Positions 1-63,967 of a DNA stretch of 64,000 nucleotides are shown piece after piece. The notes beneath the pieces are model-generated. The model had not been told where the DNA came from, made no database searches, and saw only the letters and a list, made by a program, of their open reading frames with translations. Position numbers and translations under genes: made by a program. How positions within the stretch are numbered: the stretch's first letter is position 1; each line of letters opens with the position of its first letter. The stretch is from Rhynchopus sp. YZ270_cl-10 (lineage: Eukaryota), in assembly GCA_964035575.1 (NCBI GenBank), contig OZ037838.1:434001-498000 (forward strand). The letters are read 5' to 3'.

Positions 1-383
1 TACACTCTGAACTCGAAGACAGTGTCGAAGGTTTCTGTGTCGAAGCCGCCAACGTCCCCACTGTCGTTACTGTGGACGCAGAGCGTTCCACAACGCGACA
101 GCATCAACGTCGTCGCTTGCGGTTCTGCACTGTACTTAGCAGGACACTTGATGTCGGCAAAGGGGCACGCAAGCACAACCTGCACCCCTGCACCAAACGC
201 AGTGTCCTGCAGACGGCACGTCCCCTCCAGCACCTGCGTGCCGATGCGCATCTCGACAGACGCAGGCGAGACAGCAAGCGCCGTGCACGCAACCTCCTTT
301 GCCGCTGCTACCTTCGCCTCGCACGGCACCTCCACTGTCGCAGTCACGCCTGACTCTTCCAGCACAAAGGTCACATCCATCAT
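1..383 (-). CDS. UBL + beta-propeller family member, copy 1 (5' part only; runs off the window edge)
   Basis: ATG of MMDVTFVLEESG at 383; sequence near-identical to the 5' part of the other copies. Confidence 0.8.
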   Translation of the reverse strand, partial: MMDVTFVLEESGVTATVEVPCEAKVAAAKEVACTALAVSPASVEMRIGTQVLEGTCRLQDTAFGAGVQVVLACPFADIKCPAKYSAEPQATTLMLSRCGTLCVHSNDSGDVGGFDTETFDTVFEFRV

Positions 384-3416: not shown

Positions 3417-4535
3417 TCACTCACTGTTGTGTGGGAACAGATGACGCGTCACAATGACGCCATCTGGTTGCATAACCATAACAACGCGTGAACACGGCGA
3501 TATCGCAAACCATGAACTGTTGCATGGTATCACGTGCACACGGGACATGGTTGCCACATCAAACTGGTGTAGGTGTACATCGCAATCTTCATAATTTTCG
3601 TCATCAGCATCAAATTCCAAAGCACGTATCCCCACCACAAGGTACTTCCCACACGGGGTGAACCGCATGCCCTGGACACTCTCACCCACATCAACACTGC
3701 GAAGAGCCGTACCACTCCAGTCAAAGAGCTGCACGTCGTCTTCCTCCTCCACCACAGCAAAGACAGAGGCAGGCCGCGAAAGCGCGACAACGTGACTTGA
3801 TACAGGCACACATGCCACAGCTTCACCTGTGTTCACATCCCACAGACGTACGTTCTTCTCTTTGTAGGAGGAGGTGATCACCCACCCACCACAGTCCGAC
3901 ACTGCCACGTCCCAGCAGCCTTCGTGCGAGAGAGAGCGGAGCAACGTCAGGTCTTCGTCATACACAGAGACGCCGTCTTTGCCTTGGGAGAAAACAGCAC
4001 CACCACACGCAAACACTGAGTATAAGATGCCGTCGACTTTGCGGAGCACCTCCCCACCCGGAAGCGCAACCTCGAGAAGGCCTGCCTTGCATGACAGGTA
4101 GCAGCGTGTCTTGCACTGCGAGATGGCAGGCGGACCGAACACTTCATTGTCCACTTCAAACGAGAAGACAGTGTCGAAGGTTTCTGTATCGAAACCGTCA
4201 ATATGCCCACTATCCTCCGGACTATAAACGCAGAGCGTTCCACAACGCGACAGCGACAAGTCTCCCGTCTGCGTTGCAGTGTACTCAGCAGGACACTTGA
4301 TGTCGGCAAAGCGAGGGCGGGCAAGCACAACCTGCACCCCTGCATCAAACGCAGTGTCCTGCAGACGGCACGTCCCCTCCAGCACCTGCGTGCCGATGCG
4401 CATCTCGACAGACGCAGGCGAGACAGCAAGCGCCGTGCACGCAACCTCCCTTGCCGCTGCAACGTTCGCCTCGCACGGCACCTCCACTGTCACAGTCACG
4501 CCTGACTCTTCCAGCACAAAGGTCACATCCATCAT
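3417..4535 (-). CDS. UBL + 7-bladed WD40-like beta-propeller protein, copy 2 (372 aa)
   Basis: Open ORF from MMDVTF; N-terminal ~72 aa follow the ubiquitin beta-grasp pattern; seven repeats ending in GFD/LLE/VYD/LWD/LFD/QFD/VTR; ends PHNSE*. Confidence 0.85.
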   Translation of the reverse strand: MMDVTFVLEESGVTVTVEVPCEANVAAAREVACTALAVSPASVEMRIGTQVLEGTCRLQDTAFDAGVQVVLARPRFADIKCPAEYTATQTGDLSLSRCGTLCVYSPEDSGHIDGFDTETFDTVFSFEVDNEVFGPPAISQCKTRCYLSCKAGLLEVALPGGEVLRKVDGILYSVFACGGAVFSQGKDGVSVYDEDLTLLRSLSHEGCWDVAVSDCGGWVITSSYKEKNVRLWDVNTGEAVACVPVSSHVVALSRPASVFAVVEEEDDVQLFDWSGTALRSVDVGESVQGMRFTPCGKYLVVGIRALEFDADDENYEDCDVHLHQFDVATMSRVHVIPCNSSWFAISPCSRVVMVMQPDGVIVTRHLFPHNSE

Positions 4536-11697: not shown

Positions 11698-11790
11698 CTG
11701 GGTACCTGGGTACCTGGGTACCTGGGTACCTGGGTACCTGGGTACCTGGGTACCTGGGTACCTGGGTACCTGGGCACCTGGGCACCTGGG
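11698..11790 (+). repeat. (CTGGGTAC)n 8-bp tandem array
   Basis: Read directly from the sequence. Confidence 0.95.
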
Positions 11791-12957: not shown

Positions 12958-14086
12958 TCACTCACTGTTGTGTGGGTACAGATGTCTTGTCACAATGACG
13001 CCATCTGGTTGCATAAACACAACAACAAGTGAACACGGCGATATCGCAAATGTCCCATCCATGGCTTTCGGTTGCGGTTGAGGTATCACACGCACACAGG
13101 ACATGGTCGCCACGTCGTACTGGTGCAGGAAAACATCGTAATTATCTTGCCAATCATCATCATCAGATTCCGCTCCAGTGCCCATAACCTTTATCATCAC
13201 CACAAGGTACTTCCCACACGGGGTGAACTGCATGCCCTCGACACACCCACCCACATCAACATTGCGAAAAGCTTCACCACTCCAATCAAAGAGGCGTACA
13301 CTGCTATCGCTCCCCACAGCAAAGACAGAGGCAGACGAAGAAAGCGCCACTGCATAGCACCACGCCTCATGCACACATGCCACACAAACCCCTGTGTTCA
13401 CATCCCACAGACGTATGTTCTTCTCCTCCCAGGAGGAGGTGATCACCCACCCACCACAGTCCGACACAGCCACCTCCCTGCACTCTTCATGCGAGAGAGA
13501 GCGGAGCAACGTCAGGTCTTCGTCATACACAGAGACGCCGTCTTTGCCCTTCGAGACAACAACCCTGCCACACGCGAATACTAAATACGAAGGGCCGTCG
13601 ACTTTGCGGACCACCTCCCCACCCGGAAGCGCAAGCTCGAGAAGATCTTCCACGCATGGCAGGTAGCAGCGTGTCTTGCACTGCGAGATGGCAGGCGCAC
13701 CGTGCACACTATGGGGTATGTTGAACTCAAAGACACAGGCAAAGGTTTCTGTGTCGAAACCGGCAACATTCCCACCACAAACATAGACGCAGAGCGTTCC
13801 ACAACGCGACAGCGAGAACACTACATCCGTCAATATTGTTAATTTCTGCTCAGCAGGACACTTGATGTTGGCAAAGCGGCGGGCAAGCACAACCTGCACC
13901 CCTGCCTCAAACGCAGTGTCCTGCAGACGGCACGTCCCCTCCAGCACCTGCGTGCCGATGCGCATCTCGACAGACGCAGGCGAGACAGCAAGCGCCGTGC
14001 ACGCAACCTCCTTTGCCGCTGCAACGTCCGCCTCGCACGGCACCTCCACTGTCGCAGTCTTCCAGCACAAAGGTCACATCCATCAT
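12958..14086 (-). pseudogene. UBL-propeller copy 3, 11-bp deletion frameshift after codon ~10
   Basis: gtcgcagt|cttccagc versus gtcgcagtcacgcctgactcttccagc in all other full copies; rest of the ORF is open. Confidence 0.8.
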
Positions 14087-17741: not shown

Positions 17742-18259
17742 TCACTCACTGTTGTGTGGGTACAGATGTCTCGTCACCAGAATGCCCTCCAATGGAATCG
17801 TCACAACAACGCGTGAACACGGAGATATCACAAATGACTCAACTGAGCTTTGCGGCATCACATGCACACAGGACATGGTCGACACATCATACTGGCGCAG
17901 GTAGGAGTTGAACGCCATATCATCGGTGTCCACACCATTAATGAACTCCGTAATCACTACCCCTGCCACAAGGTACTTCCCACACGGGGTGAACTGTATG
18001 TCCTGGACAACTCCACGCACAGCAACACTGCGAAGAGCCGCACCACTCCAATCATAGAGGTGCACTTTGTTCCACCCCTCCACAGCAAAGACAGAGGCAG
18101 ACCGCGAAAGCAACACTTGTACGCACGACCACTCGTCGGGCTCCACAGGCACACAGGCCACAAAAATACCTATGTTCACATCCCACAGACGTGCGTTGTT
18201 CTCCTTGTTGCAGGAGGTGATCACCCACCCACCACAGTCCGAAAGGTCACATCCATCAT
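17742..18259 (-). pseudogene. UBL-propeller copy 4, large internal deletion
   Basis: MMDVTF is joined out of frame directly to the (S)DCGGWV blade-4 sequence at ~18241; about 600 bp missing. Confidence 0.85.
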
Positions 18260-18691
18260 TGTTTCAAGAGCTGTGTAGGTGTGATGCAATTTAATGTTCT
18301 GTTTGGTGGACAGTTGAAGGAGCGGAGAGGGTGGACACGTGGAAAGAGGGGACGAGGGATGGGGTCGTTGTTTGAATATACTGTTTTGGTTGGGGTGAAA
18401 GTTCTCGGGCACAGGACAAAAATGAACGGCAGTGAGCACATGAATAGGTCTCACCATGGCGCACATCTCTGTGTGGAGGGCGACGAGGGCGGCCTGGCGG
18501 GAGGCGATGTGGTGTTCGGCTGCGACAAGGTGGTCTGCGGTGTCTTGCTCGTGGATGCAGATCTGCCATCACTGGATAGGTGTGTGGTGGCAAGACGCAG
18601 GCTTCTGTTGACGACACCAGTTCTTCCGCCTTCACGGAATACAAGGGGGCAAGTCACCACACCCATTTCACATGGTGCCAAAGCATGAACA

Positions 18692-19833
18692 TCACTCGTT
18701 GTGGGGGTACAGATGTCTTGTCGCAATGGTGGTGCTGTCGGATGATAGAAACATAACCACACGTGAACATGGTGATATTGAAAATGAGTGACCGGTGACA
18801 TCAGGGATCACAAGTACACAGGACATAGTCGCCACATCATACTGGTGCAGCTCTGCGTGTAGTTCTCCATGCAAACTCTCTTGTACATGGAAAACAAGGT
18901 ACTTCCCACACGGAGTGAATTGCACGCCAACGACACAGCCAGAGAGAGTTGCGTTCTGAAGAGCCGCACCACTCCAGTCGTAGAGCTGCACTCTCCGTGC
19001 CTCGTCCCCAGAGCCCCCCACAGCAAAGACAGAGGCAGACCGTGACAGCGCTGCAGCGCTCGTTGACAGAGGGACACATACCACAGCTTCACCTGTGTTC
19101 ACATCCCACAGACGTGCGTTGTTCTCAGTATTGGAGGAGGTGATCACCCAGCCACCACAGTGCGATACTGCCACTCTGCCCCACTGGCCGCTCTTCTGGT
19201 GCAAGAGAGTGCGGAGCAACGTCAGGTCTTCGTCATACACAGAGACGCCGTCTGTGCCCTTCGAGACAACAACACTGCCACACGCGAACACTGACCCGAG
19301 ATGCCATTGACTTTGCGGACCACCTCCCCACCCGGAAGCGCAACCTCGTGCATACCTTCCCTGCACGCCAGGTAGCAGCGTGTCTTGAACTGCGAGATGG
19401 CAGGCGGACCGCACACCTCAATGTCTACTTTGAACTTGAAGGCAGGGCTGAAGGTTTCTGTATCGAGGCCGGTGACATAAGTGACAGAGCCCGCCCTCTG
19501 TGTAAAGAGGCAGAGTGCTCCACAAGGAGACAGCGATAAGTGATGCATATACCTCCGATGTCCACCAGTTGTCACCTCTGCACTGTACTCAGCAGGACAC
19601 TTGATGTCGGCAAAATAGCGGGCAAGCACAACCTGCACCCCTGCATCAAACGCAGTGTCCTGCAGACGGCACGTCCCCTCCAGCACCTGCGTGCCGATGC
19701 GCATCTCGACAGACGCAGGCGAGACAGCAAGCGCCGTGCACGCAACCTCCTTTGCCGCTGCAACGTCCGCCTCGCACGGCACCTCCACTGTCGCAGTCAC
19801 GCCTGACTCTTCCAGCACAAAGGTCACATCCAT
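18692..19833 (-). pseudogene. UBL-propeller copy 5, single frameshift near 19297
   Basis: N-terminal half in ORF 19222-19989, C-terminal half in ORF 18692-19414; one base short at KVNGIS-x-SVFACG. Confidence 0.8.
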
Positions 19834-20175: not shown

Positions 20176-21249
20176 TCACTCACTGTTGTGCGGGTACAGA
20201 TGCTTTGTCACAATGACGCCATCTGATTGCATAGCCACAACAACACGTGAACACGGTGATATCACCAATGACGAAACATAGCTTTGAGGTATCACATGCA
20301 CACAGGAAATGGTCGACACATCATACTGGTGCAGCATGAGTGATACCTGCACCACAAGGTACTTCCCACACGGGGTGAACTGCACAGCATCGACTTCCCC
20401 ATCCACATCAACACTGCGAAGAGCCGCACCACTCCAATCATAGAGGTGCACAGTGTTTTCCTCCACCACAGCAAAAACAGAGGCAGACCGTGAAAGCGCC
20501 ACCCCATCGCAGTCCTCCAGCGGCACACATGCCACAGCTTCACCTGTGTTCACATCCCACAGACGTGTGTTGTTCTCCGTGTTGGAGGAGGTGATCACCC
20601 ACCCACCACAGTCCGAAACTGCCATGTCCCAGCACCTTTTATGCGAGAGAGTGCGGAGCAACGTCAGGTCTTCGTCATACACAGAGACGCCGTCTGAGCC
20701 CTTCGAGACAACAACACCACCACACGCAAACACTGACTTCGACATGCCGTCGACTTTGCGGACCACCTCCCCACCCGGAAGCGCAACCTCGAGAAGGCCT
20801 TCCACACACGCCAGGTAGCAGCGCGTTTTGCACTGCGAGATGGCAGGCGGAGCGTAGACTATAGTGTCCACTTCAAACGAGAAGACAGTGTCGAAGGTTT
20901 CTGTGTCGAAGCCAACAACATCCCCATTCCCGTTACTGTGGATGCAGAGCGTTCCACAACGCGACAGTCTTATGCTTCCCGCATGCGTTGCAGTATACTC
21001 AGCAGGACACCTGATGTCGGCCAAGCGAGGACAGGCAAGCACAACCTGCATCCCTGCATCAAACGCAGTGTCCTGCAGACGGCACGTCCCCTCCAGCACC
21101 TGCGTGCCGATGCGCATCTCGACAGACGCAGGCGAGACAGCAAGCGCCGTGCACGCAACCTCCTTTGCCGCTGCAACGTCCGCCTCGCACGGCACCTCCA
21201 CTGTCGCAGTCACGCCTGACTCTTCCAGCACAAAGGTCACATCCATCAT
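20176..21249 (-). CDS. UBL-propeller copy 6 (357 aa)
   Basis: Intact ORF, same architecture as copy 2. Confidence 0.85.
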   Translation of the reverse strand: MMDVTFVLEESGVTATVEVPCEADVAAAKEVACTALAVSPASVEMRIGTQVLEGTCRLQDTAFDAGMQVVLACPRLADIRCPAEYTATHAGSIRLSRCGTLCIHSNGNGDVVGFDTETFDTVFSFEVDTIVYAPPAISQCKTRCYLACVEGLLEVALPGGEVVRKVDGMSKSVFACGGVVVSKGSDGVSVYDEDLTLLRTLSHKRCWDMAVSDCGGWVITSSNTENNTRLWDVNTGEAVACVPLEDCDGVALSRSASVFAVVEENTVHLYDWSGAALRSVDVDGEVDAVQFTPCGKYLVVQVSLMLHQYDVSTISCVHVIPQSYVSSLVISPCSRVVVAMQSDGVIVTKHLYPHNSE

Positions 21250-21736: not shown

Positions 21737-23099
21737 CATAGCGCTCTAATTAGAGTATTAGGGTATAATTAGAGTCTGGGATTTTGGGCCAAGTCAGTTA
21801 GAGTCCAGTTAGAGTATAATTAGAGTCGCTTTTCTTCAATTAGACTATAATTAGAGTGCAGTTAGAGCATAAGTAGACTCTAACTACACTCTAATTATAG
21901 TCTAATTAGAGTAAAACAACAGGCTTCTTGTAGGTGCAAACCGTAAGGAACTGGTTCCCCGAAGGTTCCTCTGTAGGACCCAGGTGCCCAGGTACCCACA
22001 TAGCTGAAAATAAGACTCGGGGAACCGAGTTCTCAGCCGGACTGGGGTACAATATGTGAAGGCGCTGTGGGTCCGCCTGAAAGCGGGTCGGGGACCCGGT
22101 CGCGGGATGGTGGGGGCCTAGTCCTGGTCCTAGTCCTACTGTACCTAGTACCCAGTACCGGGACTCGGGACCCGGCTTATTCTCAGCTATGGGTACCCAG
22201 GTACTCAAACCCGCGCAGTGGCACATGCCCTCAAGTGTGAGTGACCCACACATTAGGGAATGCGATGCAAAAACTCTATGTGCACCTTCGGTGCAACGCC
22301 GCAGACAGGCCAAACATGCGTTGGACTCAGAGGAATGCCTGCTGTGCAGGTATCAAACATGAGAACCAACTCCCAACAACAAGAGGCGCCTTTTGGAGGG
22401 CGTTATTGAAGGTGTTTGGGGTGCAAAGTTTTCTACAAGTGTTGATGCGCGGGTACAGAAGTGGTGTCTTGTTCTTTCATCTGTAGGAATGTAAATATCA
22501 ATCGAATTTAACTACCACTAAGGGGTCGAAGGGGTAATCCCAGTATCAAAGGCTGTGTTGACGGGAAATCTATAGCGAGCATACGTTCATTTCATCCGAA
22601 GATATACTACTTATGAACCCAGGAGAGATCCAAGCCTCGCACTGAACAACTACCCGCGATTGACTTAGATCTTATACCACAGAGAATTCATAACAAAACA
22701 ACACCCTGCCCCATACACACTAAATAGCCATGCTTCAAGTGCATGCCCCTGGGCCAAAACTCCTGTGCTAAAAAGGCAACAAGACCATCCACAAGGAGTG
22801 TGAATTGTGCACTGGTTTTCTGGGGGAACAAACATTATTTTCTTGTGTCTGGTTCTCTGCAAGCAGAGGACAGACTTTCTGGATTACAAAGTCGAATTTC
22901 TTGCACTAGCTATGCCCCTGGGTTGATGGCTATAGCATTGGTTGATGTGCCCCTCTTATTGACCCTATTATAAGACTCTAATTATGCTCTAATTAGAGTC
23001 CAGTTAGAGTATTAGAGTTCAGTTAGAGTTTTAAAGACTCTAATTATACTCCAACTGCCGACTCTAATGATCTAATTAGAGTCTACTTAGAGCGCTATG
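21737..23099. mobile_element. CATA-terminated element with CTCTAATTAGAG subterminal repeats
   Basis: TIR CATAGCGCTCTAA(T/G)TAGA; no matching TSD seen; carries an inverted piece of the 1.2-kb cassette. Confidence 0.7.
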
Positions 23100-23572: not shown

Positions 23573-24670
23573 TCACTCACTGTTGTGTGGGTACAGATGT
23601 GCTGTTGCAATGACGCCATTTGGTTGCCTAACCATAACAACACGTGAACACGGCGATATCGCAAATGACCCATAAATAATGGGTTGCGGTATCACACGTA
23701 CACAAGACATGGTCGCCACATCGTACTGGTGCAGGTATACATTGTCAGATTCCGTAACCTCTTCCCCCACCACAAGGTACTTCCCACACGGGGTGAACTG
23801 CATGTCCTGGACAAGCCCACCCACATCAACACTGCGAAGAGCCGCACCACTCCAATCATAGAGGTGCACGTTGCCTTCCTCCCCCTCCACAGCAAAGACA
23901 GAAGCAGACCGTGAAAGCGCCACTCTACACCAGAACCCCGCAGGCACACATGCCACAGCTTCACCTGTGTTCACATCCCACAGACGTATGTTGTCCTCCA
24001 TGTTGGATTTAGTGATCACCCACCCACCACAGTCCGACACTGCCATGTCACTGCACTCTTCATGCGAGAGAGAGCGGAGCAACGTCAGGTCTTCGTCATA
24101 CACAGAGACGCCGTCTGAGCCCTTCGAGACAACAACACCACCACAGGAGAACACCGAGTCCGAGAGGCCGTCGACTTTGCGGACCACCTCCCCACCCGGA
24201 AGCGCAACCTCGAGAAGGTAATCCCAACACGCCATGTAGCAGCGTGTCTTGCAGCGCGAGATGGCAGACGGAGGGCGCACTTTAGCGTCCACTTTGAACG
24301 AGAAGACAGTGTCGAAGGTTTCTGTGTCGAAGCCACCAACATGCCCACTCTCGTTACTGTGGATGCAGAGCGTTCCACAACGCGACAGCGACAAGTCTCC
24401 CGTCTGCGTTGCAGTGTACTCAGCAGGACACTTGATGTCAGCCAAGCGAGGACAGGCAAGCACAACCTGCACCCCTGCATCAAACGCAGTGTCCTGCAGA
24501 CGGCACGTCCCCTCCAGCACCTGCGTGCCGATGCGCATCTCGACAGACGCAGGCGAGACAGCAAGCGCCGTGCACGCAACCTCCTTTGCCGCTGCAACGT
24601 CCGCCTCGCACGGCACCTCCACTGTCGCAGTCACGCCTGACTCTTCCAGCACAAAGGTCACATCCATCAT
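23573..24670 (-). CDS. UBL-propeller copy 7 (365 aa)
   Basis: Intact ORF. Confidence 0.85.
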   Translation of the reverse strand: MMDVTFVLEESGVTATVEVPCEADVAAAKEVACTALAVSPASVEMRIGTQVLEGTCRLQDTAFDAGVQVVLACPRLADIKCPAEYTATQTGDLSLSRCGTLCIHSNESGHVGGFDTETFDTVFSFKVDAKVRPPSAISRCKTRCYMACWDYLLEVALPGGEVVRKVDGLSDSVFSCGGVVVSKGSDGVSVYDEDLTLLRSLSHEECSDMAVSDCGGWVITKSNMEDNIRLWDVNTGEAVACVPAGFWCRVALSRSASVFAVEGEEGNVHLYDWSGAALRSVDVGGLVQDMQFTPCGKYLVVGEEVTESDNVYLHQYDVATMSCVRVIPQPIIYGSFAISPCSRVVMVRQPNGVIATAHLYPHNSE

Positions 24671-24969
24671 ATTGTTTTGTCTTCTTCTTGTTCCACCTCT
24701 GTCAGGAGGAGATGAGGTGTGGGTTGTTTTGTTTTGGGAATTTGGACATTTTCGTTGTGTCTGCAGGAGAGGGTTTTAGCAAAGCAAAAGTGAAAACGAA
24801 AGGTAAAGGGTGGTGTGGTCGTTAGCGTGAAAATGTCTCAAAATGAATTTCCTCACAGGTTAGTAGGTCGAGGGTGCAACGCAAATACTGATGCAACGCA
24901 CGATAGCAACACACCGCAGTACTCAGCGACAGCGAGGAGGCACGTCCCACACAGGGCGGACTGCATCAC

Positions 24970-26070
24970 TCAGTAGGGGTACAAATGCCTTGCGACAAGG
25001 ACGTTACTTCCTGCATCACCTCCTGCTGCCTTGAACACAACCACACGTGAGCACGGCGATATTGCAAATACACCTTTGGTGTCCTGTATCACACGCACAC
25101 AGGACATGGTCGCCACATCATACTGGTGCAGAGTGTACTCTTCACAAAATAGTGCACCACTCCCAAACCCAATAACGACGTACTTCCCACACGGAGTGAA
25201 CTGCACGACACCGACGTGACACTGCTCCTTTGCAAAGCTGCCAAGAGTCGCACCACTCCAGTCATAGAGGTGCACTTTGTCATAGAACCCCACAGCAAAG
25301 ACAGAGGCACACCGTGAAAGCGCCACGTGATTCCCATCCGTAGGCACACATGCCACAGCTTCACCTGTGTTCACATCCCACAGACGTATGTTGTCCTCCA
25401 TGTTGGATTTAGTGATCACCCACCCACCACAGTCCGACACTGCCATGTCACTGCACTCTTCATGCGAGAGAGAGCGGAGCAACGTCAGGTCTTCGTCATA
25501 CACAGAGACGCCGTCTGAGCCCTTCGAGACAACAACACCACCACAGGAGAACACCGAGTCCGAGAGGCCGTCGACTTTGCGGACCACCTCCCCACCCGGA
25601 AGCGCAACCTCGAGAAGGTAATCCCAACACGCCATGTAGCAGCGTGTCTTGCAGCGCGAGATGGCAGACGGAGGGCGCACTTTAACGTCCACTTTGAACG
25701 AGAAGACAGTGTCGAAGGTTTCTGTGTCGAAGCCACCAACATGCCCACTCTCGTTACTGTGGATGCAGAGCGTTCCACAACGCGACAGCGACAAGCTGTC
25801 TGCTTTCTGCTGCAGACTGTACTCAGCAGGACACTTGATGTCGGCAAAGCGGCGGGCAAGCACAACCTGCACCCCTGCATCAAACGCAGTGTCCTGCAGA
25901 CGGCACGTCCCCTCCAGCACCTGCGTGCCGATGCGCATCTCGACAGACGCAGGCGAGACAGCAAGCGCCGTGCACGCAACCTCCTTTGCCGCTGCAACGT
26001 CCGCCTCGCACGGCACCTCCACTGTCACAGTCACGCCTGACTCTTCCAGCACAAATGTCACATCCATCAT
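24970..26070 (-). CDS. UBL-propeller copy 8 (366 aa), mosaic
   Basis: Intact ORF; ends HLYPY*. Confidence 0.85.
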   Translation of the reverse strand: MMDVTFVLEESGVTVTVEVPCEADVAAAKEVACTALAVSPASVEMRIGTQVLEGTCRLQDTAFDAGVQVVLARRFADIKCPAEYSLQQKADSLSLSRCGTLCIHSNESGHVGGFDTETFDTVFSFKVDVKVRPPSAISRCKTRCYMACWDYLLEVALPGGEVVRKVDGLSDSVFSCGGVVVSKGSDGVSVYDEDLTLLRSLSHEECSDMAVSDCGGWVITKSNMEDNIRLWDVNTGEAVACVPTDGNHVALSRCASVFAVGFYDKVHLYDWSGATLGSFAKEQCHVGVVQFTPCGKYVVIGFGSGALFCEEYTLHQYDVATMSCVRVIQDTKGVFAISPCSRVVVFKAAGGDAGSNVLVARHLYPY

Positions 26071-26370
26071 TGTTTCAAGAGCTGTTGGTGTGATGCAATT
26101 GAATGTTCTGTTGTGTTTGATGTGATGTATTGTATTGTATGACTTCGCAACTCGAGTGTTCAAGTCAACGACATTCAAAGAATGGGAAGGCAACACTGTG
26201 CTCACATTGATATGGAAGCCTCCGATAGACGCCAACAAAGCAACCCAGACACACCTCTGTGCCCTCACCCTCCCGACCAACAGACCAGGCAAGCACCTTG
26301 CAGGCGTCTCTGACTCGAAGTGGTGTGTGGTTACGGAATGCAGATGAAATACAGTGTTCGAACAAAAGGG

Positions 26371-26566
26371 ATTTTATTGTTGACTTTGTCAAAATCTCTT
26401 TGTTTTTCTCTTTGTCTATTTTTCCTGCATTTTTTATTCTCTTCTTTGTACTTTCTTTTGTTTTGGTTGTTGTTAGATAAGCTCAATCGCCTATCGAGTT
26501 CTGTGAATAGCACGGAACTCCTTTTCATGTGTATCCATGGAAATCAGTATCATATGTGATACCGGG
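26371..26566. repeat. Truncated copy of the TTTTATTG element end
   Basis: Near-identical to 768-962 and ~54250-54439. Confidence 0.85.
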
Positions 26567-26779
26567 GAGAAACAAACAAAATATCCGTTATAATTGCTAT
26601 TTTTCTGGCCACGGCGATCGCGGCAGAAATGTGGTGGAGGTTTGGTGGTGGGGGGTTTGAACCACCACGGGAAGGTATGTGAGAATTCTATGCTAAAATG
26701 GGGACTCTTTTGGGGGGATAGGTTCTTCTGGGGTGGACTGCGAGAAGCTGCACAAACACAACCTCTCGCAAAACATCAC

Positions 26780-27886
26780 TCAGTAGGGGTACAGATGTCT
26801 CGTCTCAATGGTGTCGCATTCCAAATTCGCAAATAGTATCACACGTGAACACGGCGATATCTTTAATGAAAACACAGCGAAGTCTGAAAATTCACGCACA
26901 CAGGACATGGTCGCCACATCATACTGTTGCAGTAAATATTTTTGACCGTACGTCAACTCAAGTAAAAGGTACTTCCCACACAGAGTGAACTGCATGGAAC
27001 AGACAAAGAGATACCCCGGTTTATCAAAGCTGCCAAGAGCCGCACCACTCCAGTCGTAGAGCTGCACTTCGTTAGAGCACACCGCAGCAAAGACAGAGGC
27101 AGACCTTGAAAGCGCCACGTGATTCCCATCAGCAGGCACACATGCCACAGCTTCACCTGTGTTCACATCCCACAGACGTGCGTCCTCACCTCTATTGGAG
27201 GAGGTCATCACCCACCCACCACAGTCCGACACCGCTACGTAATTACACCCTTTGTGTGATAGAGAGCGGAGCAACGTCAGGTCTTCGTCATACACAGAGA
27301 GGCTTCCTTGTTCACCCCAGGAGACAACAACACCACCACGCGCGTACACTGCGTATGAGGTGCCGTCAACTTTGCGGACCACCTTCCCACCCGGAAGCGC
27401 AATCTCGCTTAGGCCTTCCTTGCACACCAGGTAGCAGCGTGTCTTGCACCGTGGGATGGCAGGCACACCGCACACATCAAAGTCTACTTTGAACTTGAAG
27501 GCAGGGCTGAAGGTTTCTGTATCGAGGCCGGTGATATAGCCTTGCTTCTGTGTAACGAGGCAGAGTGCTCCACAAGGAGACAGCGTCAAACGAATCACAT
27601 TATTTAGCTGTCCACCAGGTGGCACCTCTAGACTGTACTCAGCAGGACACTTGATGTCAGCAAAGCGGCGGGCAAGCACAACCTGCACCCCTGCCTCAAA
27701 CGCAGTGTCCTGCAGACGGCACGTCCCCTCCAGCACCTGCGTGCCGATGCGCATCTCGACAGACGCAGGCGAGACAGCAAGCGCCGTGCACGCAACCTCC
27801 TTTGCCGCTGCAACGTCCGCCTCGCACGGCACCTCCACTGTCGCAGTCACGCCTGACTCTTCCAGCACAAAGGTCACATCCATCAT
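26780..27886 (-). CDS. UBL-propeller copy 9 (368 aa)
   Basis: Intact ORF; ends HLYPY*. Confidence 0.85.
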   Translation of the reverse strand: MMDVTFVLEESGVTATVEVPCEADVAAAKEVACTALAVSPASVEMRIGTQVLEGTCRLQDTAFEAGVQVVLARRFADIKCPAEYSLEVPPGGQLNNVIRLTLSPCGALCLVTQKQGYITGLDTETFSPAFKFKVDFDVCGVPAIPRCKTRCYLVCKEGLSEIALPGGKVVRKVDGTSYAVYARGGVVVSWGEQGSLSVYDEDLTLLRSLSHKGCNYVAVSDCGGWVMTSSNRGEDARLWDVNTGEAVACVPADGNHVALSRSASVFAAVCSNEVQLYDWSGAALGSFDKPGYLFVCSMQFTLCGKYLLLELTYGQKYLLQQYDVATMSCVREFSDFAVFSLKISPCSRVILFANLECDTIETRHLYPY

Positions 27887-29100
27887 ATTGTTAAGGGGTC
27901 TGTTGTGTTTGATGTGATAGTTGGTGGTGTCACTTCGCAACGACAAATGATGAGAGTGTCCCCCAAAGATGCAAAGCAAAGCTTATGAGAAGACCCTGCT
28001 TAGACACCTTGATCACATTCGTCATCGCACATCAGCTGCGTGGGATTACACAAAGGCGTTGTCAGGGTTGATGCCATTTCCCCAACAGGAGTTCGTAATG
28101 TTGGCACGTACGATGTAGTGTTCGAGATGTAGGCGGGTACGTAAAAATTGGACGACGTTCGTAGTTTATCAGTACAGGTGCGACAATGGACCGGAGGACC
28201 CGTGAGGAGGAGATGGCAGATGCGGGAAATGGGTTCTGGATCTCAAATAAATAGTGCATCCATAGAAACGTTGGACCGGAAAAAGTCTCGCTTCGGACCA
28301 AGAATCTTCGCATTCCGTTAAACACATTTAACGGAATGCAGGGAGATAGGTGATGTCAGACGATGCGAAACGTTGGACATATTATTCAGATTTCTCATAA
28401 CACTGTGAGTCGGGAAGAAATATACCTTTCGTCCGTAAAGAGTTAGTTTAAAAATGAGGGGAAAGGAGGGGGACACGGAGGAGACACTGAACACGGCACA
28501 ACACAAAATACACACAACTGCAAACCACACTCTCGCATGATGAGCATTTGCGAGAACCTTTTGGCATCGAAACATTACCATATCAACAAGGCAAAGATTC
28601 TGTATGTCACCCAGGAAGAAAGGAATAAAAAGGGGGAAATCGTTGTTGTTTTGTTCCTATCGACAACATAACTCTGTTTGTTACCACCATCATACACTCA
28701 CGATACCTTTTTAATACCAGCCGGGGATCGTGTGAACATATGACAGCGGAGCACACACAACACATAATACGAGACACACAAAGAGGAATTAAAAGATAAT
28801 TTTACAAGACGACCCTAAGCCTCTGCTTAGTAACCTTAAAAAGGGAAGTACAGGTGGAAAGCGTTGTACAACAGTTTGCAAAACACATCACAAAGAGGTT
28901 GGCTTGACACCTCCTCGCGGCACTAATGAAAAATACAACCGACTCAAGAAAGAGTAGTTGAAACATACTAATCTTCTGATGCTCAGTCGAGCACATGCAA
29001 AGGGGTGGGACGGTGTTATTGGGTTAAAGCTTTACCAAAGTTTGGGAGGATTTTTGGCACTTTGCAGCCTTTTGTCCACACACGGCAAGTGCCCACACAC
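27672..29100. repeat. Segmental duplication (~1.4 kb) of ~32110-33528: UBL-coding region plus upstream DNA
   Basis: Near-identical sequence; identical spurious ORFs at 28062/32500 and 28318/32756. Confidence 0.92.
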
Positions 29101-29290
29101 CGCAACTCTCTGCAGGAGTGTGTGTGACGCGTCTCCAGTGGATCCACCTGGGACAACACGTGAACACGGCGATGTCGCAAATGACCCATAAATAATGGGT
29201 TGCGGTATCACACGCACACAGGACGTGGTCGCCACATCGTACTGGTGCAGGTATACATTGTCAGATTCCGTAACCTCTTCCCCCACCACA
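29101..29290 (-). pseudogene. Chimeric fragment: 3' end of the GH-like gene fused to a copy-7-type propeller fragment
   Basis: 29101-29159 matches 33549-33607; 29153-29290 matches ~23637-23774. Confidence 0.88.
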
Positions 29291-31196: not shown

Positions 31197-32324
31197 TCAC
31201 TCACTGTTGTGTGGGTACAGATGTCTTGTCACAATGACGCCATCTCGTTGCATAACCATAACAACGCGTGAACACGGCGATATCGCAAATGACTTGCTAG
31301 AGAGTTGCGGTATTTCATGCACACAGGACATGGTCGCCACATCGTACTTGCGTAGGTCTATATAACAAGGATCGTCATCCACGTCGCAGTCCTCACCAGG
31401 CTCGTGCTCACCTACCCCCACCACAAGGTACTTCCCACATGGTGTGAACTGCATACCCCAGAGACTCCCATCCACATCAACACTGCGAAGAGCCGCACCA
31501 CTCCAATCAAAGAGGCGTACACTGCTATCGCTCCCCACAGCAAAGACAGAGGCAGACCGTGAAAGCGCCACGTTATAACACCACTCCACAGGCACACATG
31601 CCACAGCTTCACCTGTGTTCACATCCCACAGACGTATGTTCTTCTCCTTCCAGGAGGCACTGAGCACCCACCCACCACAGTCAGACACTGCCACATCCCT
31701 GCACCGTACGCGCGAGAGAGAGCGGAGCAACGTCAGGTCTTCGTCATACACAGAGACGCCGTTGTGGCCCTGCGAGACAACAACCCTGCCACACGCGAAC
31801 ACTGAGTGCGAGGAGCCGTCGACTTTGCGGACCACCTCCCCACCCGGAAGCGCAACCTCGAGAAGATCTTCCACGCATGACAGGTAGCAGCGTGTCTTGC
31901 ACTGCGAGATGGCAGGCGCACCGTACGCACGATGGGGTGTGTTGAACTTAAAGACACGGGCAAAGGTTTCTGTGTCGAAGCCAACAACATTACCATCATA
32001 AACAGAGACGCAGAGCGTTCCACAACGCGACAGTGACATCGCTACGTTCATCGACAACTCCTTCGAATTGTACTCAGCAGGACACTTGATGTCGGCAAAG
32101 CGAGGACAGGCAAGCACAACCTGCACCCCTGCACCAAACGCAGTGTCCTGCAGACGGCACGTCCCCTCCAGCACCTGCGTGCCGATGCGCATCTCGACAG
32201 ACGCAGGCGAGACAGCAAGCGCCGTGCACGCAACCTCCTTTGCCGCTGCAACGTCCGCCTCGCACGGCACCTCCACTGTCGCAGTCACGCCTGACTCTTC
32301 CAGCACAAAGGTCACATCCATCAT
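31197..32324 (-). CDS. UBL-propeller copy 10 (375 aa)
   Basis: Intact ORF. Confidence 0.85.
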   Translation of the reverse strand: MMDVTFVLEESGVTATVEVPCEADVAAAKEVACTALAVSPASVEMRIGTQVLEGTCRLQDTAFGAGVQVVLACPRFADIKCPAEYNSKELSMNVAMSLSRCGTLCVSVYDGNVVGFDTETFARVFKFNTPHRAYGAPAISQCKTRCYLSCVEDLLEVALPGGEVVRKVDGSSHSVFACGRVVVSQGHNGVSVYDEDLTLLRSLSRVRCRDVAVSDCGGWVLSASWKEKNIRLWDVNTGEAVACVPVEWCYNVALSRSASVFAVGSDSSVRLFDWSGAALRSVDVDGSLWGMQFTPCGKYLVVGVGEHEPGEDCDVDDDPCYIDLRKYDVATMSCVHEIPQLSSKSFAISPCSRVVMVMQRDGVIVTRHLYPHNSE

Positions 32325-33530
32325 ATTGTTAAGGGGTCTGTTGTGTTTGATGTGATAGTTGGTGGTGTCACTTCGCAACGACAAATGATGAGAGTGTCCC
32401 CCAAAGATGCAAAGCAAAGCTTATGAGAAGACCCTGCTTAGACACCTTGATCACATTCGTCATCGCACATCAGCTGCGTGGGATTACACAAAGGCGTTGT
32501 CAGGGTTGATGCCATTTCCCCAACAGGAGTTCGTAATGTTGGCACGTACGATGTAGTGTTCGAGATGTAGGCGGGTACGTAAAAATTGGACGACGTTCGT
32601 AGTTTATCAGTACAGGTGCGACAATGGACCGGAGGACCCGTGAGGAGGAGATGGCAGATGCGGGAAATGGGTTCTGGATCTCAAATAAATAGTGCATCCA
32701 TAGAAACGTTGGACCGGAAAAAGTCTCGCTTCGGACCAAGAATCTTCGCATTCCGTTAAACACATTTAACGGAATGCAGGGAGATAGGTGATGTCAGACG
32801 ATGCGAAACGTTGGACATATTATTCAGATTTCTCATAACACTGTGAGTCGGGAAGAAATATACCTTTCGTCCGTAAAGAGTTAGTTTAAAAATGAGGGGA
32901 AAGGAGGGGGACACGGAGGAGACACTGAACACGGCACAACACAAAATACACACAACTGCAAACCACACTCTCGCATGATGAGCATTTGCGAGAACCTTTT
33001 GGCATCGAAACATTACCATATCAACAAGGCAAAGATTCTGTATGTCACCCAGGAAGAAAGGAATAAAAAGGGGGAAATCGTTGTTGTTTTGTTCCTATCG
33101 ACAACATAACTCTGTTTGTTACCACCATCATACACTCACGATACCTTTTTAATACCAGCCGGGGATCGTGTGAACATATGACAGCGGAGCACACACAACA
33201 CATAATACGAGACACACAAAGAGGAATGAAAAGATAATTTTATAAGACGACCCAAAGCCTCTGCTCAGTAACCTTAAAAAGGGAAGTACAGGTGGAAAGC
33301 GTTGTACAACAGTTTGCAAAACACATCACAAAGAGGTTGGCTTGACACCTCCTAGCGGCATTAATGAAGAATACAACCGACTCAAGAAAGAGTAGTTGAA
33401 ACATGCTAATCCGCCAATACTCAGTCGAGCACATGCAAAAGGGTGGGGCGGTGTTATTGGGTTAAAGCTTTACCAAAGCTTGGGGGGATTTTTTTGGTAC
33501 TTTGCAGCCTTTTGTAGCCCACACACTACA

Positions 33531-37166: not shown

Positions 37167-37496
37167 TAATAGATACTCCCTACCCTTCAATTGATGTGAT
37201 GCAACTGAAACAAAAGGGTTGTGAGCAGTGTGCAGAGAGAGAGACTGTGGAGCGAAATATACACAAATTTCTGTGGGGGGTAAATTGATGCGAAGAGAAT
37301 GGGACGGAGGTGCCGGGTGGCGGTGATGTCCCCCTAGGTATGGGTAACAGTACATGCCACAACACAGCTGTTGTGCTGACGGTTTTTATAATAAAAACCC
37401 CATATCAGAGTATACAGTGCAGGCAGACGGTTGGGGGGGGGGGTGTGCGGGTGGTTGTGGCATCAAAATTGAGAGGGGGGACGAAGGGATGGGATG

Positions 37497-40464: not shown

Positions 40465-41598
40465 TCACTCAGTGTTGTGTGGGTACAGAGGCTTCGTCAC
40501 AATGGTGTTGCTTGAGGACACAAACACAGCCACACGCGAACACGGTGATACCGCAAATGACAAACACGTGGAGTGAAGGTCAACAATCACGCGCACACGG
40601 GACATCGTCGCCACATCGTACTGGTGCAGTTCTACACTACCTTCATCATCTCGTTCATCGTCATAATATTCCTGCACCTTGACCACAAGGTACTTCCCAC
40701 ACGGAGTGAACTGCATGTGCGTGTCCTCGAGATCCCACCCATCCACATCAATAATGCCAAGCGCCGCACCACTCCAATCAAAGAGGTGCACACCGTCCTT
40801 CTCCCCCACAGCAAAGACAGAGGCAGACCGTGAAAGCGCCACTCCACACAACCCATCCGTCGGCACACATGCCACAGCTTCACCTGTGTTCACATCCCAC
40901 AGACGTCCCTTCCTCCGGGAATGTGCGGAGGCGAGCAGCCACCCACCACAGTGCGACAGAGCCACTTTCTGTGTGCCCCTGCACTCGTGCGATACAGAGC
41001 GGAGCAACGTCAGGTCTTCGTCATACACAGAAACGCCTCCTGTGCCCTGGGAGAGAACAACACCACCACACGCAAACACTGAGTACGAGGGGCCGTCGAC
41101 TTTGCGGACCACCTCCCCACCCGGAAGCGCAACCATGCGTAAGTCTTCCCCATACGCCAGGTAGCAACGTGTCTTGCACTGCGAGATGGCAGGCAGGATT
41201 TGCCAAGTACCGTCCACTTTGAACGAGAAGACAGTGTCGAAGGTTTCTGTGTCGAAGCCGACATACACCTCGTTCTTCTGTACAAAGACGCAGAGCGTTC
41301 CACAACGCGACAGCGACAAGTGCTTCACACTCCGCTGTGCACTGTACTCAGCAGGATACTTGATGTCGGCAAAGCGGGGGCGGGCAAGCACAACCTGCAC
41401 CCCTGCATCAAACGCAGTGTCCTGCAGACGGCACGTCCCCTCCAGCACCTGCGTGCCGATGCGCATCTCGACAGACGCAGGCGAGACAGCAAGCGCCGTG
41501 CACGCAACCTCCTTTGCCGCTGCAACGTCCGCCTCGCACGGCACCTCCACTGTCGCAGTCACGCCTGACTCTTCCAGCACAAAGGTCACATCCGTCAT
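40465..41598 (-). CDS. UBL-propeller copy 11 (377 aa)
   Basis: Intact ORF. Confidence 0.85.
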   Translation of the reverse strand: MTDVTFVLEESGVTATVEVPCEADVAAAKEVACTALAVSPASVEMRIGTQVLEGTCRLQDTAFDAGVQVVLARPRFADIKYPAEYSAQRSVKHLSLSRCGTLCVFVQKNEVYVGFDTETFDTVFSFKVDGTWQILPAISQCKTRCYLAYGEDLRMVALPGGEVVRKVDGPSYSVFACGGVVLSQGTGGVSVYDEDLTLLRSVSHECRGTQKVALSHCGGWLLASAHSRRKGRLWDVNTGEAVACVPTDGLCGVALSRSASVFAVGEKDGVHLFDWSGAALGIIDVDGWDLEDTHMQFTPCGKYLVVKVQEYYDDERDDEGSVELHQYDVATMSRVRVIVDLHSTCLSFAVSPCSRVAVFVSSSNTIVTKPLYPHNTE

Positions 41599-52874: not shown

Positions 52875-54011
52875 TCACTCACTGTTGTGTGGATACAGAT
52901 GTCTGGTGAAAATGGAGGAGCCGTCGCCAAACACAACCACACATGAACATGGGGATATCGCAAACGATGAACTGCTTGCATTCTTAATCACACGCACACA
53001 GGACATGTTTGCCACATCATACTGGTGAAGGTCGAAGTCCCAACAAAAATCAGACATCATGTTCGAGATATTGACCACAAGGTACTTCCCACACGGGGTG
53101 AACTGCATGCTCTCAATATCCCCACCTACATCAACGCTGCGAAGAGCCACACCACTCCAATCATAGAGGTGCACGGTGTTTTCCTCCCCCTCCACAGCAA
53201 AGACAGAGGCAGAACGTGAAAGCGCCACTTGGCATTGCCCCTCTGCAGGCACACATGCCACAGCTTCACCTGTGTTCACATCCCACAGACGAGCGTTGCC
53301 ATCGTTGTCGGACTCGGAATCGGAGGAGGTGATCACCCACCCACCACAGTCCGACACGGCCGCTCCCTCACAGCCTTTGTGCGAGAGAGAGCGAAGCAAC
53401 GTCAGGTCTTCGTCATACACAGAGACGCCAATGTCGCCTTCAAACGAGAAAACAACACCGCCACACGCAAACACTGCGGAGGAGGGTCCGTCGACTTTGC
53501 GGAGCACCTCCCCACCCGGAAGCGCAACCTCGTGCATGCCTTCCCTGCACGCCAGGTAGCAGCGTGTCTTGCACCGTGAGATGGCAGGTAGACTGTACAC
53601 CCCATTGTCTACTTTGAACTTGAAGGCAGGGCTGAAGGTTTCTGTATCGAGGCCGGTGACATAGCCTGCCCTCTGTGTAAAGAGACAGAGTGCTCCACAA
53701 GGAGACAGCAATACGTGAACTATATTCGCTTGATACTTTAACTCTGGCATCTCTAGACTGTACTCAGCAGGACACTTGATGTCAGCAAAGCGGCGGGCAA
53801 GCACAACCTGCACCCCTGCATCAAACGCAGTGTCCTGCAGACGGCACGTCCCCTCCAGCACCTGCGTGCCGATGCGCATCTCGACAGACGCAGGCGAGAC
53901 AGCAAGCGCCGTGCACGCAACCTCCTTTGCCGCTGCAACGTCCGCCTCGCACGGCACCTCCACTGTCGCAGTCACGCCTGACTCTTCCAGCACAAAGGTC
54001 ACATCCATCAT
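52875..54011 (-). CDS. UBL-propeller copy 12 (378 aa)
   Basis: Intact ORF. Confidence 0.85.
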   Translation of the reverse strand: MMDVTFVLEESGVTATVEVPCEADVAAAKEVACTALAVSPASVEMRIGTQVLEGTCRLQDTAFDAGVQVVLARRFADIKCPAEYSLEMPELKYQANIVHVLLSPCGALCLFTQRAGYVTGLDTETFSPAFKFKVDNGVYSLPAISRCKTRCYLACREGMHEVALPGGEVLRKVDGPSSAVFACGGVVFSFEGDIGVSVYDEDLTLLRSLSHKGCEGAAVSDCGGWVITSSDSESDNDGNARLWDVNTGEAVACVPAEGQCQVALSRSASVFAVEGEENTVHLYDWSGVALRSVDVGGDIESMQFTPCGKYLVVNISNMMSDFCWDFDLHQYDVANMSCVRVIKNASSSSFAISPCSCVVVFGDGSSIFTRHLYPHNSE

Positions 54012-55393: not shown

Positions 55394-55402
55394 GGGATTG
55401 GG

Positions 55403-62785: not shown

Positions 62786-63967
62786 TCACTCACTGTTGTG
62801 TGGGTGCAGATGCTGTGTCACAATGACGCCGTCTGATTGCGTAACCACAACAACACGTGAACACGGCGATATCGTAAATGCCCCCCCATTCTCGGTTTGC
62901 GACAGAACACGCACACAGGACATGGTCGCCACATCATACTGGTGCACGTATGACTTGTAATACTCGTAATCGGGGTAAATGCTGCTGCAATCGGTGTCCT
63001 CATCATCCGTATACCATATAAATTCCCCAACCTCTACCCCCACCACAAGGTACTTCCCACACGGGGTGAACTGCATGCCCCAGACCCCACCCACATCAAC
63101 ACCGCGAAGAGCCGCACCACTCCAATCATAGAGGTGCACGGTGCTATAGTCCACCACAGCAAAGACAGAGGCAGACCGTGAAAGCGCCACTTCACACGAC
63201 CTACCCGCAGGCACACATGCCACAGCTTCACCTGTGTTCACATCCCACAGACGTGCGCTGTCCTCACTGGAGGTGGTCACCCACCCACCACAGTCCGACA
63301 GTGCCAGGTCCTTGCACTCTTCATGCGAGAGAGAGCGGAGCAACGTCAGGTCTTCGTCATACACAGAGACGCCGTCTTTGCCCTTCGAGACAACAACACA
63401 GCCACACGCAAACACTGAGTGCAAGTCAACAACACCGCCACGTCCGTATGAAACCGAGGGGCCGTCGACTTTGCGGACCACCTCCCCACCCGGAAGCGCA
63501 ACCTCGAGAAGGCAATCCTTGCATGCCAGGTAGCAGCGTGTCTTGCACTGCGAGATGGCAGGTGGACCGAACACTTCATTGTCCACTTTGAACGAGAAGA
63601 CAGTTTCAAAGGTTTCTGTGTCGAAACCGCCAACGTGCCCACTCTTGTTACTGTGGATGCAGAGCGTTCCACAACGTGACAGCGTCAACGACATCGCTTG
63701 CGGCTCTGTAGTGTACTCAGTAGGACACTTGATGTCGGCCAAGCGAGGACAGGCAAGCACAACCTGCACCCCTGCATCAAACGCAGTGTCCTGCAGACGG
63801 CACGTCCCCTCCAGCACCTGCGTGCCGATGCGCATCTCGACAGACGCAGGCGAGACAGCAAGCGCCCTGCACGCAACCTCCTTTGCCGCTGCAACGTCCC
63901 CCTCGCACGGCACCTCCACTGTCGCAGTCATGCCTGACTCTTCCAGCACAAAGGTCACGTCCATCAT
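62786..63967 (-). CDS. UBL-propeller copy 13 (393 aa)
   Basis: Intact ORF, with a 10-aa internal duplication-like insertion (YGRGGVVDLH). Confidence 0.85.
   Translation of the reverse strand: MMDVTFVLEESGMTATVEVPCEGDVAAAKEVACRALAVSPASVEMRIGTQVLEGTCRLQDTAFDAGVQVVLACPRLADIKCPTEYTTEPQAMSLTLSRCGTLCIHSNKSGHVGGFDTETFETVFSFKVDNEVFGPPAISQCKTRCYLACKDCLLEVALPGGEVVRKVDGPSVSYGRGGVVDLHSVFACGCVVVSKGKDGVSVYDEDLTLLRSLSHEECKDLALSDCGGWVTTSSEDSARLWDVNTGEAVACVPAGRSCEVALSRSASVFAVVDYSTVHLYDWSGAALRGVDVGGVWGMQFTPCGKYLVVGVEVGEFIWYTDDEDTDCSSIYPDYEYYKSYVHQYDVATMSCVRVLSQTENGGAFTISPCSRVVVVTQSDGVIVTQHLHPHNSE

Follow-up and report, generated by a model that had tools for sequence, protein, structure and literature searches.

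Evidence for segmental exchange among paralogs of a tandem UBL-WD40 gene family in Rhynchopus sp. YZ270_cl-10, with likely selection on one face of the propeller

A 64-kb stretch of Rhynchopus sp. YZ270_cl-10 DNA (contig OZ037838.1, positions 434,001 to 498,000; hereafter the window) carries 13 copies of a gene predicted to encode a ubiquitin-like domain (UBL) and a WD40 propeller, and raises the question of how variable loops come to be shared in patches between these paralogs. The initial annotation read the patches as cassettes shuffled blade by blade, with conserved scaffold blocks acting as recombination anchors, in analogy to mosaic VSG formation. Nine of the 13 copies have an open full-length frame, three are broken and one is cut by the window edge (Table 1); the proteins comprise 357-393 aa, and their whole length is accounted for by the UBL and the propeller. 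At least 120 close relatives of the window genes are spread over several long contigs. The array genes are intron-free and lie on the same strand, which suggests a euglenozoan-like protist (compare PMC10161547). A neighbouring protein has best matches of 41-44% to EukProt entries and of 36% to Diplonema papillatum. Rfam searches returned 0 matches, and of 290 pattern matches in a metagenome scan 0 were confirmed.

Table 1. Features of the array, in window coordinates; for the 75-nt patch, the coordinates in copy 7 come from a manual count over alignment columns 241-345.
Feature	Position	Strand	Remarks
Copy 1	1..383	-	Cut by window edge
Copy 2	3417..4535	-	Intact; ORF
Copy 3	12958..14086	-	Frameshift: 11-nt deletion early in UBL
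Copy 4	17742..18263	-	Large internal deletion; start codons fused out of frame to blade 4
Copy 5	18692..19833	-	Frameshift in loop d2-a3
Copy 6	20176..21249	-	Intact; ORF
Copy 7	23573..24670	-	Intact, 365 aa; ORF and structure models
Copy 7 UBL	about 24455-24670	-	Structure models
Copy 7 propeller, blades 1-7	24394-23576	-	Blade coordinates from model
Copy 7 side of 7/8 tract	23942..24395	-	Blades 1-4, seven top-face loops; likely donor
75-nt exact match, copy 7/copy 2	24365..24439 (copy 2: 4230-4304)	-	Covers loop 1
Copy 8	24970..26070	-	Intact, 366 aa; apparent mosaic, copy-7-type middle with divergent flanks
Copy 8 side of 7/8 tract	25342..25795	-	Likely recipient; exact pieces present in public contigs
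Copy 9	26780..27886	-	Intact, 368 aa; ORF
Patch common to copies 5, 9 and 12	27483..27534 (copy 5: 19422-19490)	-	Run test, triplets, motifs
Copy 9 upstream flank	27887..29159		97.2% over 1283 bp to copy 10 flank 32325-33607
Copy 10	31197..32324	-	Intact; ORF
Copy 11	40465..41598	-	Intact; P0129 is 93% counterpart, on 2.7-Mb contig
Copy 12	52875..54011	-	Intact; P0131 is 94% counterpart
Copy 13	62786..63967	-	Intact; ORF

The AF2 model of the propeller has a pLDDT of about 90, and its Foldseek matches include G-beta and WDR5 (E about 1e-16), consistent with a predicted WD40 propeller of seven four-stranded blades. Hypervariability is found in the 14 top-face loops (d-a and b-c), and the a-b and c-d turns are conserved. 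The N-terminal domain, modelled from 9 sequences with a pLDDT of 83, superimposes on ubiquitin with a TM-score of 0.83-0.86, a Z-score of 12.8 and an rmsd of 1.8 over 76 residues; it is thus predicted to be an integral ubiquitin-like domain with a beta-grasp fold of about 75 aa. At the sequence level this assignment has weak backing, with Rad60-SLD matched in P0154 alone (E = 0.019), and 23 of the 25 matches to a UBL query against 1.84 billion representatives were family-type proteins. At four-fold sites the UBL shows 0 of 1281 pairwise differences; neither this nearly invariant domain nor the likely positive selection described below figures in the initial annotation. A cleavable ubiquitin-type modifier carries a di-glycine at the domain end; in the translations the UBL continues into the linker without a terminal Gly-Gly, and such a role was rejected. 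An F-box/BTB-type cullin adaptor was likewise rejected, as the modelled N-terminal domain folds as ubiquitin, and the NLE domain, which in the Ytm1/Rsa4 family bears a MIDAS-binding glutamate, had no match listed in Pfam scans nor any among the 50 fold matches listed. The residue equivalent to Ile44 of ubiquitin is presumably Arg46 (ubiquitin numbering), rendering classic proteasome-receptor binding by the UBL doubtful.

The clearest case of sharing involves copies 7 and 8, where the reported near-identity of about 454 bp between differing flanks was borne out. The tract contains 1 mismatch in 454 bp (24285 G in copy 7, 25685 A in copy 8; Ala/Val), and mismatches turn dense immediately beyond both ends, so that an identity of 99.8% is framed by 67.9% in the 5' flank (83 alignment columns) and 69.5% in the 3' flank. 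In the alignment both ends lie within conserved scaffold stretches of about 30 and 45 bp. We regard it as fairly likely that a copy-7-type gene was the donor and copy 8 the recipient; public contigs from 2 studies carry the copy-8 base at the mismatch position, an observation that fits either direction. Downstream of the tract the proposed resemblance of copy 8 to copy 9 is limited to about 150 bp and the final codons, and fails over the 3' part as a whole, where copy 8 matches copy 13 (72.9%) as closely as copy 9 (72.8%). This low similarity to copy 9, a first loop that differs from that of copy 7 and the lack of a match between the two intergenic spacers led us to reject a simple unequal crossover of copies 9 and 7 as the origin of copy 8.

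Exchange is also indicated elsewhere in the array. All 10 motifs described as shared were recovered in the stated copies and in no others, differing by 0-1 nt. The sharing between copies 3 and 10 appears to reflect mostly common descent, because the two are neighbours in 5 of the 6 trees built per segment and, with 100% support, in the whole-propeller tree; in the run test the pairs 2/13 and 3/10 fell outside the best 16 of 55 pairs. A PHI-type test gave p = 0.002, the lowest value that 500 permutations allow, for the full set of 11 copies and again after removal of copy 8 or of both 7 and 8; leaving out copies 8, 5, 9 and 12 gave p = 0.004. Similarly, the near/far incompatibility ratio was 0.83 (0.86 without copy 8) as compared to 1.00 ± 0.02 in 60 no-recombination simulations with fitted site rates. 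Triplets above the simulated maximum numbered 52 of 495, or 28 of 360 without copy 8; all 28 of the latter include copy 5, 9 or 12, and the number of independent events in the window is therefore small. Phylogenies per segment were incongruent, with copy 8 grouping with copy 7 in segments 2-4 (support 97-100) and moving to copies 5/9 in segment 5 (support 79). AU tests rejected most cross-segment trees, and were given less weight than the simulations because short segments yield noisy trees. The propellers of copies 9 and 10 are only 71.7% identical despite the 97.2% identity of their upstream flanks, and copy 12 differs from its counterpart P0131 by a block of three loops, which is copy-5-type in copy 12 and copy-9-type in P0131. 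In combination, the tract, the run test, the trees, the simulations and the counterparts uphold the proposal of segmental exchange among paralogs, and a near-identical internal tract with divergent flanks and segment-dependent trees, judged from the sequences, point to ordinary ectopic gene conversion as the likely process.

Tests across the whole family were restricted to proteins, DNA-level tests being confined to the window copies. The protein set comprised 104 sequences, namely 5 window copies and 99 of the 120 relatives listed, after removal of 21 long entries, mostly with N-terminal extensions; the relatives are clustered at 90% identity and biased to relatives of copy 7. Tracts scoring >8 were shared by 36 of 5356 protein pairs, the maximum in 3 shuffles being 6.2. 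Tracts vary in extent, the shortest taking in only part of a loop and the longest four blades. Loop similarity was correlated at 0.11 between neighbouring loops and at about 0.02 at separations of 3-9 (Mantel p = 0.025), although a star-like expansion would by itself leave distant loops almost uncorrelated. Exact sharing of single loops by otherwise divergent paralogs is seen, for example, in P0004/P0058 and P0078/P0089. Each loop has 53-102 distinct alleles among the 104 proteins, which suggests that most loop diversity arises by new substitution and indel and is reshuffled afterwards.

The distribution of these changes bears on the strongest alternative, that the family is relaxed and churning neutrally, or is a passenger of repeat-driven duplication, with conversion as a by-product and the loops unconstrained. 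Three broken copies in the window, a loop dN/dS by counting of 1.18 (0.95-1.40), i.e. close to 1, and a UBL pN of 0.015 that is not below pS (0.008, with a wide interval) are in line with this view. The dS of the loops is itself elevated, perhaps through misaligned positions, alleles of greater age or hypermutation confined to them. Conversely, scaffold omega is 0.40, and variation is limited to the two types of top-face loop. A site model (in-house implementation, 9 genes, segment trees, indel loops removed) revealed a significant class that takes in 10% of 183 codons at an omega of about 6 (2dL = 69.9), a signal that recombination inside segments can inflate; 5 of 6 selected sites fall among the 16 top-loop codons tested. 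Furthermore, top loops hold 17 of 24, 13 of 20 and 9 of 17 differences between close counterparts while making up about 32% of the protein. Positive selection thus likely diversifies one propeller face, and neutral churning appears unlikely.

Less probable still is the model of the initial annotation, in which a dedicated VSG-like system shuffles loop cassettes between scaffold anchors and so diversifies clones. The position of both 7/8 tract ends inside scaffold, the exact sharing of single loops and the near absence of linkage between distant loops would fit such a system. However, across all tracts 26 of 55 ends fall in scaffold as compared to 54% under a uniform null (p = 0.34), giving no enrichment at the supposed anchors; later mutation biases this test towards loops, and a modest preference for scaffold may exist. 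Nor do the mostly unique alleles constitute a small set of cassettes, or the variable extent of the tracts a blade-by-blade exchange. The analogy to VSGs fares no better: a hydropathy scan, as distinct from a trained predictor, detected neither a signal peptide nor a membrane segment in any of the 9 intact copies (maximum over 19 residues 1.47; first 30 residues ≤0.96), most copies have open frames, neither an expression site nor a silent archive was seen within the window, and exchange runs between similar-looking array members.

A chimera of assembly or polishing as the source of the 7/8 identity, with common descent behind the remainder, is very unlikely: copies 7 and 8 adjoin and no read or contig bridges either tract end (the public contigs are short and fragmented, do not reach across the 30-45-bp scaffold stretches, and have a depth not usable as copy number), but the tract contains a substitution, copy-8 flank pieces and tract loops match exactly in independent public contigs from 2 studies, the 457-kb contig far exceeds the tract, and recombination signal persists without copies 7 and 8 as well as in other proteins. 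Equally remote is diversification of the loops by targeted mutagenesis (DGR-like or localised hypermutation) followed by spread through conversion, for which the gradient in silent divergence speaks (27% in loops, 17-18% beside loops, 9% in deep scaffold; four-fold differences 142/521 in loops and 378/2604 in scaffold), yet selected loops that resist homogenisation would give the same gradient, minority-base fractions (A 0.34, C 0.28, G 0.29, T 0.25) lack a strong adenine bias, and the reverse transcriptase in the window resembles that of a retrotransposon. A diversity-generating retroelement target, expected to vary specifically at adenines against a template repeat, was rejected, as the four bases vary at similar rates and the loops carry indels.

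By analogy, the family would work like the zebrafish NLR-B30.2, nematode F-box and fungal HNWD repertoires, through ordinary ectopic conversion plus selection, rather than by VSG switching. In zebrafish NLR-B30.2, hundreds of clustered paralogs have one domain homogenised by conversion, while in the recognition domain the hypervariable patches, which are under positive selection, are recombined in short tracts (PMC4852459). Clustering, homogenisation and recombined, probably selected patches recur here, whereas the fish proteins are NACHT-LRR-B30.2 and ours are two-domain UBL-WD40 proteins without an ATPase domain. Podospora HNWD/NWD genes likewise have a WD40 binding face under diversifying selection, with exchange between family members (PMC1805685, PMC13449251), but the repeats within one of those genes are 80-100% identical and are shuffled whole, whereas blades within one gene here are on average 20% identical (maximum 28%) without a DNA self-match, different genes trade stretches at matching positions, and NACHT and HET domains are lacking. 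The F-box and MATH-BTB adaptors of nematodes, subject to birth-death evolution and proposed to detect foreign proteins, also combine a constant docking domain with a positively selected substrate-binding domain (as summarised in PMC4334554); our constant domain is a predicted ubiquitin fold instead of an F-box or BTB. The architecture of an N-terminal UBL and a seven-bladed WD40 propeller is that of Ytm1 and Rsa4/NLE1, conserved factors of ribosome assembly that use their UBL to bind the MIDAS domain of Rea1 (PMC4737154), in contrast to which the present family is expanded and hypervariable, with no Pfam NLE match listed. Mosaic VSGs of Trypanosoma brucei share homology-driven segmental conversion within a family, but form a surface coat, one VSG at a time being expressed from a telomeric site and a silent, mostly pseudogenic archive supplying it (PMC13233330), for none of which a counterpart was seen for the UBL-WD40 genes in the window.

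The account that we consider probable is thus a tandem UBL-WD40 family shaped by ectopic gene conversion and by selection on one propeller face for target binding. Wherever there is enough homology, break repair would take over tens to hundreds of bases from a paralog. This would hold the UBL and a large part of the scaffold uniform and occasionally place a single loop, or several, in a different frame, as from a copy-7-type gene to copy 8. Conversion combined with diversifying selection on a recognition face is a well-known mechanism; the protein that carries it seems not to be, and a literature search found no publication on an expanded, hypervariable UBL-WD40 family. The odds are about even that the product is a cytosolic adaptor or receptor, with a variable top face for binding a range of proteins, probably foreign ones, and a constant UBL for docking to a single host partner, which would most likely belong to the ubiquitin, proteasome or AAA-ATPase machinery. 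A more speculative reading, to which we give a minor chance, is that hundreds of self-contained degraders form an intracellular immune repertoire of a single-celled eukaryote, in which the WD40 face would catch foreign proteins, the UBL would pass these on, with no E3 ligase, to an AAA ATPase or the proteasome, and conversion would recombine loops between copies and strains. If the family is a true recognition repertoire, it would offer an entry point to the way in which microbial eukaryotes sense invaders inside the cell, built on one invariant domain whose partner could be found by a single pull-down.

Nine of the 13 copies of the UBL-WD40 gene (UBL, the N-terminal ubiquitin-like domain) are intact, encoding 357–393 aa; the window edge truncates copy 1, and three others (3, 4 and 5) are broken. 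Copy 3 carries an 11-nt deletion between 2-bp direct repeats (near 14050) and copy 4 a deletion of about 600 bp (near 18245), both of which may be end-joining scars. A protein search gave 418 matches at E ≤ 0.001; family membership was read from the best 120 of these, which have 70–100% identity and lie on contigs of nine sizes, possibly from more than one assembly, including the window's 456,684-bp contig and one of 2.7 Mb. With the UBL alone, 25 matches were obtained among 1.84 billion representatives. Twenty-one are family members or fragments beginning in the UBL (43–100% identity), and the remainder comprise one 60-aa fragment and three repetitive proteins that were apparently hit by chance; the family would account for 21–22 of the 25. 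Divergent relatives (P0145–P0148, P0151, P0152 and P0154; UBL 43–89% identical) on other long contigs are apparently outside the homogenised pool and useful as outgroups. No paper on such a family was found in the literature searched, which omits most subscription journals, and the family seems undescribed. Its architecture is that of Ytm1/Rsa4, a likeness in plan and not an assignment to that family.

The initial annotation proposed patchwork exchange between paralogs, and this is borne out. Copies 7 (23942–24395) and 8 (25342–25795) share 454 bp with a single mismatch, as opposed to 68–70% identity outside this tract, and all ten motifs named as shared are present in the copies concerned with 0–1 nucleotide differences. 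A PHI-type test was significant for the 11 near-full copies, and also without copy 8, without 7 and 8, and without 8, 5, 9 and 12. The near/far incompatibility ratio was 0.83 (0.86 without copy 8) compared with 1.00 ± 0.02 in sixty simulations on one tree with fitted site rates. The simulated maximum was exceeded by 52 of 495 triplets, and by 28 without copy 8, every one of which includes copy 5, 9 or 12. A GENECONV-like run test, uncorrected for clustered low-variation sites, reached the permutation floor in 8 of 55 pairs. In separate trees for six propeller segments, copy 8 groups with copy 7 in segments 2–4 and with copies 5 and 9 in segment 5. Among 104 family proteins, tracts well above the shuffle maximum were found in 36 of 5356 pairs, the 7/8 pair being the strongest. 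Copy 12 differs from its 94% counterpart P0131 at three adjacent loops as a block, of copy-5 type in copy 12 and copy-9 type in P0131. The flanks are mosaic as well: copies 9 and 10 are 97.2% identical over 1283 bp upstream and 71.7% in their propellers, and copies 2 and 3 are alike at 96% over 273 bp downstream.

Within the 7/8 tract copy 7 is nearest copies 6 and 13 (0.89), and beyond it the similarity is still 0.82–0.85. Since copy 7 is near copies 6 and 13 throughout, and the 3' part of copy 8 reaches at most 0.73 to any copy, copy 8 probably received the tract. Public sequencing runs contain 0.45–0.57 of the window's words and probably represent other isolates. Exact pieces of the copy 8 flanks and exact tract loops occur in public contigs from two studies, and the SNP is spanned by contigs of 86 and 92 nt, both with the copy-8 base. 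None of these contigs bridges either tract end, so that they give tract and flanks as separate, unlinked pieces.

The finer claims were not supported. Switches had been placed in the scaffold, the conserved propeller sequence; 26 of 55 tract ends fall there, and breakpoints placed uniformly would do so in 54% of cases (p = 0.34). The count covers the 29 tracts left of 33 after de-duplication, with the 7/8 tract split at its own SNP, and later mutation shifts ends toward loops. Instead of shared cassettes, each loop has 53–102 distinct alleles among the 104 proteins, and instead of single blades, the 7/8 tract covers blades 1–4 and other tracts part of one loop. According to the segment trees, copies 3 and 10 owe most of what they share to common descent. 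As for the proposed mosaic VSG analogy, none of the defining features of mosaic VSG (PMC13233330) was observed here.

An AF2 model from 104 family sequences gave a confident propeller matching G-beta and WDR5, with seven blades as read from the modelled strand order. The 14 d-a and b-c loops are predicted to make up its top face, in WD40 proteins the usual ligand surface. Residues 1–78, modelled with divergent members, adopt a ubiquitin fold (pLDDT 83; TM 0.83–0.86; Z 12.8, rmsd 1.8 over 76 residues). At the position of Ile44 in ubiquitin numbering the family has Arg, so the UBL partner may be something other than a proteasome receptor. The proteins of the nine intact copies show no apparent signal peptide or membrane segment.

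Column entropy averages 0.10 across the UBL, as against 0.43 for the scaffold and 2.26 for the 14 loops. Among eight copies (copy 8 left out), differences at four-fold sites number 0 in 1281 comparisons for the UBL, 378 in 2604 for the scaffold and 142 in 521 for the loops. Because a UBL without silent differences adjoins a domain with 15–27%, frequent homogenising conversion of the UBL is the simplest explanation. By counting, dN/dS is 0.40 for the scaffold and 1.18 (0.95–1.40) for the loops. A site model (own implementation, nine genes, six segment trees, 12 indel-bearing loops taken out) fits better with a class whose omega is about 6 (2dL = 69.9), and five of six selected sites lie in the two loops kept.

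The array is accompanied by other genes and repeats (see table). The 196-bp element is probably a small mobile element; one public contig joins 26367 to 26565, an empty or paralogous site, and no clear target-site duplication was seen at the window copies. The ORF with reverse transcriptase matches is accompanied by two minus-strand ORFs, one ending with motifs like those of tyrosine recombinases, and is flanked by microsatellites; the locus is probably a DIRS/TATE-type retrotransposon. The USB1-like protein recurs unchanged on the 2.7-Mb contig, and a copy differing at 2 residues is found at another place on the window's contig, so the region is either duplicated or represented by a second haplotype. 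The PAN/EGF protein has relatives in diverse eukaryotes and a weak GH43 link, and the Cys/His-rich ORF has a B-box-like pattern.

Features of the window
Feature	Position	Remarks
UBL-WD40 gene, 13 copies		all minus strand
Dispersed 196-bp element	768-963, 26372-26567, 54248-54439	95-99% identical
BspA-type leucine-rich-repeat ORF	15478-16416	between family copies
USB1-like phosphodiesterase	16827-17492	within array; Pfam HVSL
PAN/EGF protein	33531-34979	probable signal peptide
Cys/His-rich ORF	35859-37355	
His/Asp/Thr-rich ORF	38770-39885	
ORF with weak matches to reverse transcriptase and RNase H	55911-60329	plus strand
7-13-bp satellites	46528-47118, 51527-52002, 54996-55828, 60521-60744, 37471-38114	long, mostly perfect
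Inverted pair	46513-47493 / 54621-55564	94.6%
508-bp inverted pair	45999-46506 / 62073-62580	99.2%
Dispersed repeats	10352-11791, 50233-51625, 22192-22940	80-92%

The mosaic array is thus real, and the product of a known process. Shared tracts, a homogenised UBL, a variable top face and a statistical signal of selection are all observed; homologous repair between paralogs would both homogenise and reshuffle the copies, and selection would hold the loops different. The array works like zebrafish NLR-B30.2, HNWD and nematode F-box adaptors, a likeness that is not taken to mean membership in any of them. The chances are about even that the family protein is a cytosolic recognition adaptor, its UBL docking one constant partner.
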